Part shown: positions 1 through 48,505 of the stretch, piece after piece
Position numbering within the stretch: position 1 is the first letter of the stretch
Layout of the letters: each line of letters opens with the position of its first letter
Assembly: GCA_964016885.1 (NCBI GenBank)
Contig: OZ024742.1
Location: 12,276,001 to 12,340,000 of the forward strand
DNA: 64,000 nucleotides
Reading direction: 5' to 3'
From: Eledone cirrhosa
Lineage: Eukaryota
The notes under the pieces: generated by a model
What the model was told of the DNA's origin: nothing
What the model saw: only the letters and a program-made list of their open reading frames with translations
Database searches by the model: none
Program-made: the position numbers and the translations under genes

Positions 1-3000
1 TAACCGGTGCTGATGATGGCTAACAAGCTTGAAACTAGTGCATCGTTTCTGTGTCAGTGTTGAACAAAAGGGTGACGTGGTTGCCTTAACACCGTATGGC
101 ATAGATTCAGGCTGTTCAGTTTGTTGACAAACGAACAAAGCGGCGTTATAATAGGCGTCCGCTAAACTGATGCGTGCATATATGTATGTGTACCTGTATG
201 TATATATATGTATATATATATATATATATATATATATATATATATATATATATATATATATATATATATATATGCATTCTACTGTGCGTCTGTATACATA
301 TATGTATGTACGTATACTTACATACTTACATTTAAGTAAGTGCCATACTAAGAGTGAGAAATGAAATTTCGTTTTCATTTTTTTTCAATTTATCGTTTTC
401 GGAATGCCTGACCGATTTAACTCACTCAATATGCAAATTAGGCTGCTCAGCCGTTAATTTTCATAAGGAAAGTATATATTTTCGAACGTTCAACTATCTG
501 GCAGATGGGTAAACGGTGCTGATGATGGCTAACAAGCTTGACACTAGTGCATCGTTCCTGTGTCAGTGTTGAATAAAAGGGTGACGTGGCTGCCTTAACA
601 CCGTATGGCATAGATTCAGGCTGTTCAGTTTGTTGACAAACGAACAAAGCGGCGTTATAATATGCGTCCGCTAAACTGATGCGTGCATATATGTATGTGT
701 ACCTGTATGTATATATATGTATATATATATATATATATATATATATATATATATATATATATATATATATATATATATATATATATATATATATGCATGC
801 TACTGTGCGTCTGTATACATATATGTATGTACGTATACATACATAATTACATTTAAGTAAGTGCCATACTAAGAGTGAGAAATGAAATTTCGTTTTCATT
901 TTTTCAACTTATCGTTTTTCGGTATGCCTGACCGATTTAACTCACTCAATTTTCAAATTAGGCTGCTCAGCCGTTAATTTTCATAAGGAAAGTATATACT
1001 TTCGAGCGTTCAACTATCTGGCAGATGGGTAAACGGTGCTGATGATGGCTAACAAGCTTGAATCTAGTGCATCGTTCCTGTGTCAGTGTTGAACAAAAGG
1101 GTGACGGGGTTGCCTTAACACCGTATGGCATAGATTCAGGCTTTTCAGTTTGATGACAAACGAACAAAGCGGCGTTATAATAAGAGTCCGCTAAACTGAT
1201 GCGTGCATATATGTATGTGTACCTGTATGTATGTATATGTATATATATATATATTTATATATATATATATATATATATATATATATATATATATATATAT
1301 ATATATATATATATATATATATATATATATATATATATATATATATATATATATATATATGCATGCTACAGTGCGTCTGTATACATATATGTATGTACGT
1401 ATACATACGTACTTACATTTAAGTAAGTGCCATACTAAGAGTGAGAAATGAGATTTCGTTTTCATTATTTTCAGCTTATCGTTTTCGGTATGCCTGACCG
1501 ATTTAACTCACTGAATATGAAAATTAAGCTGCTCAGCCGTTAATTTTCATGAGGAAAGTATATACTTTCGAACGTTCAACTATCTGGCAGATGGGTAAAC
1601 GGTGCTGATGATGGCTAACAAGCTTGAAACTAGTGCTTCGTTCCTGTGTCAGTGTTGAACAAAAGGGTCACGTGGTTGCCTTAACACCGTATGGCATAGA
1701 TTCAGGCTGTTCAATTTGTTGACAAACGAACAAAGCAGCGTTATAATAAGCGTCCGCTAAACTGATGCGTGCATATATGTATGTGTACCTGTATGTATAT
1801 ATATGTATATATATATATATATATATATATATATATATATATATATATATATATATATATATGCATGCTACTGTGCGTCTGTATACATATATGTATGTAC
1901 GTATACATATATACTTACATTTAAGTAATGGCCATACTAAGAGTTAGAAATGAAACTACGTTTTAGTTTTTTTTAACTTATCGTTTTCGGTATGCCTGAC
2001 GATTTAACTCACTCAATATCCAAATTAGGATGCTCAGCCGTTAATTTTCATAAGGAAAGTATATACTTTCGAACGTTCAACTATCTGGCAGATGGGTAAA
2101 CGGTGCTGATGATGGCTAACAAGCTTGAAACTAGTGCATCGTTCCTGTGTCAGTGTTGAACAAAAGGGTGACGGGGTTGCCTTAACACCGTATGGCATAG
2201 ATTCAGGCTGTTCAGTTTCTTGACAAACGAACAAAGCGGCGTTATAATAAGCGTCCGCTAAACTGATGCGTGCATATATGTATGTGTACCTGTATGTATG
2301 TATATGTATATATATATATATATATATATATATATATATATATATATATATATATATATATATATATATATATGCATTCTAATGTGCGTCTGTATACATA
2401 TATGTATGTACGTATACATACATACTTACATTTAAGTAAGTGCCATACTAAGAGTGAGAAATGAAATTTCGTTTTCATTTTTTCAACTTATCGTTTTTCG
2501 GTATGCCTGACCGATTTAACTCACTCAATATTCAAATTAGGCTGCTCAGCCGTTAATTTTCATAAGGAAAGTATATACTTTCGAGCGTTCAACTATCTGG
2601 CAGATGGGTAAACGGTACTGATGATGGCTAACAAGCTTGAAACTAGTGCATCGTTCCTGTGTCAGTGTTGAACAAAAGGGTGACGGGGTTGCCTTAACAC
2701 CGTATGGCATAGATTCAGGCTGTTCAGTTTGTTGACAAACGAATAAAGCGGCGTTATAATAAGAGTCCGCTAAACTGATGCGTGCATATATGTATGTGTA
2801 CCTGTATATATATATATATATATATATATATATATATATATATATATATATATATACATATATATATATATAATATGCATGCTACTGTGCGTCTGTATAC
2901 ATATATGTATGTACGTATACATACATACTTACATTTAAGTAATGGCCATACTAAGAGTGAGAAATGAAATTACGTTTTCATTTTTTTTCAATTTATCGTT

Positions 3001-6000
3001 TTCGGTATGCCTGACCGATTTAACTCACTCAATATGCAAATTAGGCTGCTCAGCCGTTAATTTTCATAAGGAAAGTATATACTTTCGAACGTTCAACTAT
3101 CTGGCAGATGGGTAACCGGTGCTTATGATGGCTAACAAGCTTGAAACTAGTGCATCGTTTCTGTGTCAGTGTTGAACAAAAGGGTGACGTGGTTGCCTTA
3201 ACACCGTATGGCATAGATTCAGGCTGTTCAGTTTGTTGACAAACGAACAAAGCGGCGTTATAATAGGCGTCCGCTAAACTGATGCGTGCATATATGTATG
3301 TGTACCTGTATGTATATATATGTATATATATATATATATATATATATATATATATATATATATATATATATATATATATATATATATATATATATATATA
3401 TATATATATATGCATGCTACTGTGCGTCTGTATACATATATGTATGTACGTATACATACATACTTACATTTAAGTAATTGCCATACTAAGAGTGAGAAAT
3501 GAAATTTCGTTTTCATTTTTTCAACTTATCGTTTTTCGGTATGCCTGACCGATTTAACTCACTCAATATTCAAATTAGGCTGCTCAGCCGTTAATTTTCA
3601 TAAGGAAAGTATATACTTTCGAGCGTTCAACTATCTGGCAGATGGGTAAACGGTGCTGATGATGGCTAAAAAGCTTGAAACTAGTGCATCGTTCCTGTGT
3701 CAGTGTTGAAGAAAAGGGTGACGGGGTTGCCTCAACACCGTATGGCATAGATTCAGGCTGTTCAGTTTGTTGACAAACGAACAAAGCGGCGTTATAATAA
3801 GCGTCCGCTAAACTGATGCGTGCATATATGTATGTGTACCTGTATGTATGTATATGTATATATATATATATATATATATATATATATATATATATATATA
3901 TATATATATATATATATATATATATATATATACATATATATATATATATATGCATGCTACAGTGCGTCTGTATACATATATGTATGTACGTATTCATACA
4001 TACTTACATTTAAGTAAGTGCCATACTAAGAGTGAGAAATGAGATTTCGTTTTCATTTTTTTCAGCTTATCGTTTTCGGTATGCCTGACCGATTTAACTC
4101 ACTCAATATGCAAATTAGACTGCTCAGCCGTTAATTTTCATAAGGAAAGTATATACTTTCGAACATTCAACTATCTGGCAGATGAGTAAACGGTGCTGAT
4201 GATGGCTAACATGCTTGAAACTAGTGCATTGTTCCTGTGTCAATGTTGAACAAAAGGGTGACGTGGTTGCCTTAACACCGTATGGCATAGATTCAGGCTG
4301 CTCAGTTTGTTGACAAACGAACAAAGCGGCGTTATAATAAGCGTCCGCTAAACTGATGCGTGCATATATGTATGTGTACCTGTATGTATATTTATATATA
4401 TATATATATATATATATATATATATATATATATATATATATATATATATATATATATATATATATATATATATATGCATGCTACTGTGCGTCTGTATACA
4501 TATATGTATGTACGTATACATACATACTTACATTTAAGTAATTGCCATACTAAGAGTTAGAAATGAAATTTCGTTTTCATTTTTTTCAACTTATCGATTT
4601 CGGTATGCCTGACCGATTTAACTCACTCAATATGCAAATTAGGCTGCTCAGCCGTTAATTTTCATAAGGAAAGTATATACTTTCCAACGTTCAACTATCT
4701 GGCAGATGGGTTAACGGTGCTGATGATGGCTAACAAGCTTGAAACTAGTGCTTCGTTCCTGTGTCAGTGTTGAACAAAAGGCTGACGTGGTAGCCTTAAC
4801 ACCGTATGGCATAGATTCAGTCTGTTCAGTTTGTTGACAAACGAACAAAGCGGCGTTATAATAAGCGTCCGCTAAACTGATGCGTGCATATATGTATGTG
4901 TACCTGTATGTATATATATATATATACATATATATATATATATATATATATATATATATATATATATATATATATATATATATATATATATATATATATA
5001 TATATATATATATGCATGCTACTGTGCGTCTGTATACATATATGTATGTACGTATACATACATACTTACATTTAAGTAATGGCCATACTAAGAGTGAGAA
5101 ATGAAATTACGTTTTCATTTTTTTTCAATTTATCGTTTTCGGTATGCCTGACGGATTTAACTAACTCAATATGCAAATTAGGCTGCTCAGCCGTTAATTT
5201 TCATAAGGAAAGTATATACTTTCGAACGTTCAACTATCTGGCAGATGGGTAACCGGTGCTGATGATGGCTAACAAGCTTGAAACTAGTGCATCGTTTCTG
5301 TGTCATTGTTGAACAAAAGGGTGACGTGGCTGCCTTAACACCGTATGGCATAGATTCAGGCTGTTCAGTTTGCTGACAAACGAACAAAGCGGCGTTATAA
5401 TAGGCGTCCGCTAAACTGATGCGTGCATATATGTATGTGTACCTGTATGTATATATATGTATATATATATATATATATATATATATATATATATATATAT
5501 ATATATATATATATATATGCATGCTACTGTGCGTCTGTATACATATATGTATGTACGTATACATACATACTTACATTTAAGTAAGTGCCATACTAAGAGT
5601 GAGAAATGAGATTTCGTTTTCATTATTTTCAGCTTATCGTTTTCGGTATGCCTGACCGATTTAACTCACTGAATATGAAAATTAAGCTGCTCAGCCGTTA
5701 ATTTTCATGAGGAAAGTATATACTTTCGAACGTTCAACTATCTGGCAGATGGGTAAACGGTGCTGATGATGGCTAACAAGCTTGAAACTAGTGCTTCGTT
5801 CCTGTGTCAGTGTTGAACGAAAGGGTCACGTGGTTGCCTTAACACCGTATGGCATAGATTCAGGCTGTTCAATTTGTTGACAAACGAACAAAGCAGCGTT
5901 ATAACAAGCGTCCGCTAAACTGATGCGTGCATATATGTATGTGTACCTGTATGTATATATATGTATATATATATATATATATATATATATATATATATAT

Positions 6001-48000: not shown

Positions 48001-48505
48001 CATTTTTGTTCAGCTTATCGTTTTCGGTATACCTGACCTATTTAACTCACTCAATATGCAAATTAGGCTGCTCAGCCGTTAATTTTCATAAGGAAAGTAT
48101 ATACTTTCGAACGTTCAACTATCTGGCAGATGGGTAAACGGTGTTGATGATGGCTAACAAGCTTGAAACTAGTGCATCGTTCCTGTGTCAGTGTTGAACA
48201 AAAGGGTGACGTGGTTGCCTTAACACCGTATGGCATAGATTCAGGCTGTTCAGTTTGTTGACAAACGAACAAATCGGCGTTATAATAAGCGTCCGCTAAA
48301 CTGATGCGTGCATATATGTATGTGTACCTGTATGTATATATATGTATATATATATATATATATATATATATATATATATATATATATGCATGCTACTGTG
48401 CGTCTGTATACATATATGTATGTACGTATACATACATACTTACATTTAAGTAAGTGCCATAGTAAGAGTGAGAAATGAAATTTCGTTTTCATTTTTTTTC
48501 AACCT
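1..48505 (+). repeat. Tandem satellite array, about 94 head-to-tail units of 455-611 bp (about 430 bp conserved core plus variable (TA)n); open at the left window edge
   Basis: The landmark ggctgctc(a)gccgttaattttc recurs 93 times (about 447, 967, 1534 ... 47597, 48072), plus a partial unit at base 1. Units differ by a few SNPs and by (TA)n length. The array ends at ...ttttcaacc followed by a (TA)n run at about 48505-48570. Confidence 0.99.
13688..13774 (+). ncRNA. Type I hammerhead-ribozyme-like motif (representative copy; one per array unit)
   Basis: Core CTGATGA at 13719-13725. Stem II is T-GGCT-AACA-AGCT-T. GAAA at 13740-13743, palindromic CTAG loop, then T16.1 and G17 (13749). Stem I pairs AACGGTG with CATCGTT and extends through TGGG/CCTG, CTGGCA/TGTCAG and GTTCAAC/GTTGAAC with small bulges. 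G17 and U10.1.U11.1 are non-canonical. Confidence 0.75.

Follow-up and report, generated by a model that had tools for sequence, protein, structure and literature searches.

What is a long tandem array of hammerhead ribozyme motifs in which every unit carries a G at the cleavage site, and how could such an array have been built? The question is raised by a 64,000-nt stretch of the Eledone cirrhosa genome (the window, meaning here the whole stretch of DNA analysed), most of which is occupied by a repeat that an initial annotation described as a candidate retrozyme or ribozyme-satellite locus, yielding self-cleaved monomers or circles. The repeat is best read as a non-LTR (long terminal repeat) retrozyme family, that is, a non-coding and non-autonomous retroelement, and the array is probably a cleavage-dead offshoot of it. 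Strand-specific A>G changes in the array and in young insertions of the family look like the marks of ADAR-edited RNA circles copied by rolling-circle reverse transcription, and suggest that the array was founded by an edited RNA.

The array and its dispersed family

As annotated, about 94 hammerhead motifs lie in one orientation: 94 motif cores were found on the plus strand of the window and none on the minus strand, at a spacing of 455-611 nt, and the generic core pattern has no match in the other 15.5 kb of the window. Contrary to what had been supposed, the array is bounded. DNA fetched beyond the window adds eight units upstream, giving a total of 102 units and 52,630 bp that start 4.1 kb before the window, at a unit boundary after TA-rich sequence, and both ends adjoin TA-rich simple sequence, the right end at window position 48505 lying in a (TA)n tract. 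The size of the array, 52.6 kb, is unexceptional, since retrozyme arrays of 180-300 units are on record elsewhere (10.64898/2026.07.22.740005). Differences in unit length reside in the internal (TA)n tract, which together with its flanks folds into a long hairpin in one family monomer.

The motif has the topology of a type I hammerhead, with CUGANGA and GAAA boxes and stems I-III in type I order, and folding bears out the bulged stem I that had been annotated (-29.4 kcal/mol, z -3.03; 2 shuffled sequences among 200 did equally well). The motif had been credited to every unit; both core boxes are kept in 90 of the 102, and the remaining 12 are not intact. Covariance models gave no support at threshold: there were no gathering-level Rfam matches in the window, and on one unit Hammerhead_HH9 scored 16 bits (E 0.59) against a cut-off of 52. 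Among 25 aligned family copies the core is nearly invariant, with variation in N7 and loop II, and helix pairing is kept in 96.3% of cells, a level reached by 7 of 500 shuffles. The G10.1-C11.1 pair closing stem II is absent, which had been viewed as damage in need of repair; U10.1-U11.1 is instead the usual closure in the family, and C10.1-G11.1 with U17 is found in eight exact old family copies. The ACUAGU palindrome of stem III would allow two copies to pair over 6 bp, a small palindromic helix III being the arrangement of dimer-acting animal hammerheads (PMC4209133).

Hammerhead cleavage needs H (A, C or U), and not G, at N17 (PMC3923133). The NUH cleavage triplet is present in family copies and absent from the array, where all 102 units have G17, for which pairing with C3 is predicted (probability 0.97), and because of this G the array is predicted to be cleavage-dead. 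The claim that the array itself releases monomers or circles cut after G is thus probably wrong, and cleavable forms lie elsewhere in the genome. A first DNA search of the genome returned almost only the array, and a 16-mer at the cleavage site with H17 has 20,820 matches in the 3.0-Gb genome, against three for a reversed-pattern control, while its G17 form has 156, of which 89 are in the array; cleavable matches exceed G17 copies by about 130 to 1. A 26-mer of the young subfamily has 8,426 matches genome-wide, and several independent insertions are identical to their nearest neighbour at the scored sites. What the genome contains is a dispersed family whose tandem units are short, non-coding and low in GC and hold a single type I hammerhead; the assignment to a retrozyme-type repeat stands, that of active release by this array probably does not.

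This is a new retrozyme family of a known kind. Metazoan non-LTR retrozymes occur in thousands of copies, from monomers to long multimers (PMC7229834; 10.64898/2026.07.22.740005), and, like the Eledone family, are built of low-GC tandem units that do not code for protein, contain one type I hammerhead apiece and are found beside Penelope-like elements. The Eledone family differs in its unit of 455-611 nt, its internal (TA)n hairpin and its U10.1-U11.1 closure, as well as in the inverted 5' arms, one-sided tail, insertion-wide A>G marks and non-cleavable array site. Cleavage and circles have been demonstrated for the metazoan retrozymes and are predicted for the Eledone family. The words 'octopus' and 'cephalopod' are absent from the main text of PMC7229834, and the supplements of the cited papers may list the family. 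Newt satellite 2 and the axolotl retrozymes also form satellite-type arrays of type I hammerheads, which cleave, and do so better as dimers (PMC7229834); the Eledone array, in contrast, is predicted to be dead, and most of the family to which this locus belongs is dispersed.

Growth of the array to 102 units is largely the result of block duplication at the DNA level. Units differ on average at 14.8 of ~445 positions, 133 of the 249 array variants are common to more than one unit, and near-identity is seen between units at lags of 4, 5, 8 and 13 but not between adjacent ones, a combination of near-identity and shared variants that points to such duplication. The mutation spectrum of array variants has no bias, and variants also strike the core. 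Derivation of the whole 102-mer from a single rolling-circle product was rejected; as an estimate of the number of founding units, clustering gives 14-40 groups, depending on the threshold.

A>G changes carried by whole insertions

The array is set apart from its nearest subfamily by fixed changes at five unit positions (u139, u161, which is N17, u191, u225 and u343). Read on the ribozyme strand, all five are A>G, and each is carried by 101 or 102 of the 102 units. Background A>G amounts to 66 of 581 private changes in unselected copies, against which five of five has a p of ~2e-5. Because it was this pattern that prompted the hypothesis, the later tests carry the weight. In 34 young insertions that were not picked for A>G, these changes make up 14 of 25 unit-shared substitutions, as compared with 7 of 65 unit-private ones (p 2e-5), and among unit-shared changes A>G outnumbers T>C by 14:3 (p 0.013); three young insertions carry three unit-shared A>G each, where 0.3 would be expected. 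All substitution counts leave out the hypervariable u236-283 and the poly-T at u436-445; u198-209 is left out of the counts for older loci and for scattered G17 and G139, and the young-set count omits A124T and, within the subfamily that they mark, G293A and A377G.

The 5' neighbour of 23 candidate sites is G in none (p 0.04) and U in 13 (p 0.015). ADARs from across the animal kingdom tend to avoid a 5' G (PMC5625713), and RNA-level data have documented widespread editing of repeats in coleoids (PMC9068888). One-strand A>G, avoidance of a 5' G and the targeting of repeats are features that the Eledone marks have in common with coleoid A-to-I editing; the difference is that the coleoid data were obtained from RNA, whereas retrotransposition appears to have fixed the Eledone marks in genomic DNA.

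No single observation speaks more strongly for copying of an edited circle than what appears to be a record of it in a very young insertion, L265. Here a 966-nt dimer is repeated, the halves of which differ at nine sites, all nine A>G, and the same pattern runs through the three periods that were read and keeps its phase in the inverted arm; the G343 marker recurs every 966 nt for six periods, the spacers alternate exactly, and private change is almost nil. In another insertion, L266, two A>G changes are found in four of four units of both arms, and L231 and L226 have patterns common to several units, which in L231 extend over the inverted arm as well. In a linear multimer each unit would be edited on its own, so exact repetition of a pattern points to repeated copying of one molecule. 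What we have shown, at the level of genomic sequence, is strand-specific, clustered A>G common to the units within insertions, with dimer periodicity. Judged by marker positions, four further loci also have periodic or insertion-wide patterns. G191 recurs in runs of neighbouring units elsewhere in the genome, and judged by marker positions only, it lies every 948 nt, possibly a dimer period, at G000:C2:69559417-69562295 and forms a 12-unit run over both insertion arms at G000:C6:21388744-21393973. Among the matches listed, G225 is present in none of the 45 G191 copies beyond the array.

A copy from another sub-lineage, L061, is a single (solo) unit with G139, G17, G224 and G351 as its only private changes. 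A second candidate for an independent double of G139 and G17, L170, was set aside, since its G17 is found in only one of four units; of the two doubles among the 29 outside copies listed, only L061 counts. G17 may thus have arisen in template RNA at least twice, in the founder of the array and in that of this single unit, which does not imply that such events are general. Other repeats, with (TA)n between them, form a long inverted duplication that has the solo copy at its centre (L061:4260-5930).

Insertion layout, mobilisation and the proposed origin

The first 100 young matches fall into 31 clusters of 1-18 units, with 12 head-to-head junctions and no tail-to-tail ones. In 13 of 14 inverted insertions the outer ends are at u383-391 and u432-445 and run into (TA)n (the left end of the 14th is beyond the fetched locus). 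The family insertions are thus short tandems in (TA)n with an inverted 5' arm and a one-sided tail of ~55 nt, and an inverted 5'-truncated copy, a one-sided tail and microsatellite targeting are hallmarks of Penelope-like elements (10.1101/2021.04.23.441226). Small palindromic helix III and partial tandems are further points of resemblance to the hammerheads in the pseudo-long terminal repeats (pLTRs) of these elements (PMC4209133; 10.1101/2021.04.23.441226). The retrozyme unit differs in having no open reading frame (ORF), in its longer tail (30-40 bp being reported for Penelope-like elements), and in the missing G10.1-C11.1 pair.

The genome holds 10,596 GIY-YIG candidates, of which 150 were scored. 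Sampled ORFs contain RVT_1 in nine of nine cases, a C-terminal GIY-YIG domain in seven of nine and a Cys linker in six of six, and one of the Penelope-like proteins of this genome has its nearest named relatives among proteins of bivalve molluscs, with identities reaching ~60%. An autonomous family with reverse transcriptase and GIY-YIG domains carries, ~390 nt beyond the ORF, a minimal type I hammerhead, with U.U closure and a palindromic stem III in the hammerheads at L096, L100, L101, L106 and L110, and L110 itself has the inverted layout of the retrozyme family, together with a one-sided tail of ~55 nt. The old family copy 1.3 kb downstream of the ORF at L111 is a separate insertion in (TA)n. 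Additional recurrent type I hammerhead-like motifs, one of them with a very long stem II, were noticed at L102:33, L103:6462, L104:3979 and L113:2172, at L077:25, L107:1374 and L112:1858, and also at L103:1266; these probably represent more retrozyme or pLTR families.

A scheme that we consider likely to be correct as a whole is that of a retrozyme whose ADAR-edited circle was copied by rolling-circle reverse transcription, giving rise to an array that was dead at birth and subsequently expanded as DNA. Family copies with a GUA site would be transcribed, the type I hammerhead would cut after GUA, probably as a dimer formed through the ACUAGU palindrome, and the cut RNAs would be circularised. 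A Penelope-like protein with reverse transcriptase and GIY-YIG domains would then copy the circles into (TA)n and write them as tandems with an inverted 5' arm, which is the layout observed. Some template RNAs would have undergone A-to-I editing, presumably by ADAR, and reverse transcription would fix A>G in every unit written, in keeping with the observed pattern. The array would descend from one RNA edited at five sites including N17, and would for that reason have been born cleavage-dead.

Several results weigh against this interpretation. With older loci included, the unit-shared ratio of A>G to T>C falls to 18:10 (p 0.18), and counted by distinct sites the young set gives 9:3 (p 0.15). 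In 100 unselected copies only two A>G were found over six A sites each, so fixed edits are rare events. Scattered G17 is unit-shared in one of 14 multi-unit loci and G139 in one of 11, and most scattered G17 and G139 copies are ordinary later DNA mutations. Beyond the array, G17 is found 67 times against 56 for a mirror T>C control (p 0.37), and frequent N17 editing among inserted copies was rejected on this and the unit-sharing count: such editing is uncommon there. (G139 occurs 47 times beyond the array against 27 for its control, p 0.027.) The G343 marker has 525 matches beyond the array, part of which may be one lineage, as it is present in the old copies L246 and L256, and L265 was picked for G343, so that one of its ten A>G is selected. 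In the folded circle the mean pairing of candidate sites is 0.61 as against 0.58 for the average A; inverted insertions would supply long duplexes for editing. Covariation in the hammerhead is weak, with two doubly changed pairs (86 of 500 shuffles match this), and the predicted lowest-energy fold of a young family copy is not the hammerhead. Lastly, no Penelope-like element with the retrozyme unit as its pLTR was found in 50 GIY-YIG loci of the ~10,600 candidates, which contained only inserted family copies and unrelated hammerheads, and for this reason we infer the mobilising partner.

The A>G marks could also be explained within the same retrozyme family by polymerase or reverse transcriptase error combined with selection on RNA structure over generations of source copies, rather than by ADAR, which we think quite unlikely. 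A change from A-U to G.U is tolerated in RNA stems, unit-shared G>A is absent (0 of 44) and T>C is also raised (10 of 44), and several A>G are subfamily markers, G343 in old copies being one. However, C>T would be equally tolerated in stems and is commoner in DNA, and was seen three times as against 14 for A>G; a copy with G17 should stop propagating, so G17 cannot be selected for; the listed G191 copies outside the array, none of which has G225, offer no intermediate; and the nine A>G by which one half of the L265 dimer departs from the other have the character of a burst and not of drift. An account on which the edited template was a linear read-through multimer, with the periodicity produced by duplication of DNA after insertion, is in our judgement fairly unlikely. 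The array itself underwent DNA block duplication, L217 has single variants that turn up in 3 of its 19 units, and the circular state of the template RNA is one that we infer; but each unit of a multimer would be edited independently, whereas L265, L266, L231 and L226 have patterns common to their units, in the first three across the inverted arm, and in L265 the spacers alternate exactly with almost no private change.

The remaining accounts concern the array alone. That it is active as a ribozyme satellite and sets free monomers of 455-611 nt by cleavage after G is extremely improbable: the retention of both core boxes in 90 of 102 units and a stable stem I are what such a satellite would have, but the G17 of every unit contravenes the NHH rule (PMC3923133) and is predicted to pair with C3, variants are unbiased and reach the core, and cleavable relatives outnumber G17 copies as described above. 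It is very unlikely, too, that the length of 102 units is partly an artefact of assembly, for which the near-identical blocks at lags 4, 5 and 8 could be cited, given the average difference of 14.8 positions between units and the clean sequence of both junctions.

If copying of edited circles is the correct explanation, the family has some bearing on earlier proposals. Copying of circular RNA into tandem DNA has been proposed, not demonstrated, for retrozymes and Penelope-like elements (PMC7229834, PMC4209133), and an exact two-unit period that stays in phase across an inverted arm would be close to a direct record of it, with edit patterns that could be counted across some 8,000 young copies. 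The family would also exemplify the return of RNA edits to a germ-line genome, as well as the conversion of a dead ribozyme element into satellite DNA. RNA editing has already been named as a possible cause of heterogeneity in retrozyme RNA (PMC7229834, PMC4918200). In a search that left most subscription literature outside, we found no publication on cephalopod or octopus hammerheads, retrozymes or ribozyme satellites, and none linking ADAR or A-to-I editing with retrozymes, rolling circles or retrotransposed copies.

More tentatively, germ-line ADAR editing of circles might leave genomic barcodes, and A17-to-I might act as a switch against re-opening of the circle, a proposal about which we are more doubtful than confident. 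Inosine at N17 slowed an engineered hammerhead ~30-fold (PMC3923133), so an N17-edited circle would resist re-opening, and a mechanism as yet unspecified must block the ribozyme in animal circles (PMC7229834), for which editing of N17 or stem II is a testable candidate. Were the germ-line reading true, each edit pattern would testify that a single circle, monomeric or dimeric, had been reverse-transcribed in rolling-circle fashion; the switch, if real, would explain how the ribozyme is kept blocked in the retrozyme circles of animals, and would be favourable to long arrays like this one.

Other elements of the window

The sequence to the right of the array contains several other repeats, listed in the table with the features discussed above. 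They include a short interspersed element (SINE)-like sequence, in which ARAGORN found no tRNA and which presumably resembles octopus SINEs (a likeness that, together with the richness in microsatellites, would fit an octopod), inverted repeats reminiscent of miniature inverted-repeat transposable elements (MITEs), and the remains of non-LTR retrotransposons.

Table. Positions of the array, of the parts of a representative unit and of other elements (window coordinates unless a locus or contig is named)
Feature	Position	Strand	Remarks
Tandem array	1..48505	+	94 of its 102 units in window; whole array ~G000:C3:12271876-12324505
One full unit	13589..14059	+	471 nt (u1-u445, TA tract collapsed)
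Type I hammerhead fold	13688..13774	+	long bulged stem I
Core box CUGAUGA	13719..13725	+	C3-A9
Stem-loop II	13726..13739	+	closure U10.1-U11.1; 13727 is an array-specific G (u139; family A)
GAAA box and palindromic stem III ACUAGU	13740..13748	+	
N17	13749	+	G (u161; family A) in 102/102 units; predicted cleavage-dead; candidate fixed A-to-I edit
Array-specific G	13779	+	u191; family A; 101/102 units
Array-specific G	13813	+	u225; family A; 102/102 units
Internal (TA)n tract	13906..13942	+	varies among units
Array-specific G	13957	+	u343; family A; 102/102 units
Right junction	48495..48570	+	usual 3' insertion end of family (u445) into (TA)n target
L265	G000:C1:160405000-160408700		very young insertion with dimeric repeat unit
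Hammerheads of the autonomous Penelope-like family	L096:2151, L100:2836, L101:2619, L106:2802, L110:2915 and 5870		
SINE-like element	~49045-49250		related copy L062:2655-2870
Short element with strong internal inverted repeat	~49600-49790 and 63430-63610		(TA)n-flanked; also in L061, L113
Inverted repeats, MITE-like	~49950-50200 and 50890-51095		~200 bp, ~0.7 kb apart
Near-identical direct repeats, LTR-like	~54978-55352 and 56862-57237		~375 bp, 1.9 kb apart, flanking CAG-rich stretch
Broken non-LTR retrotransposon	57213-62245	-	zinc knuckle, endonuclease and zf-RVT matches
Further non-LTR retrotransposon fragment	near 62400-63200

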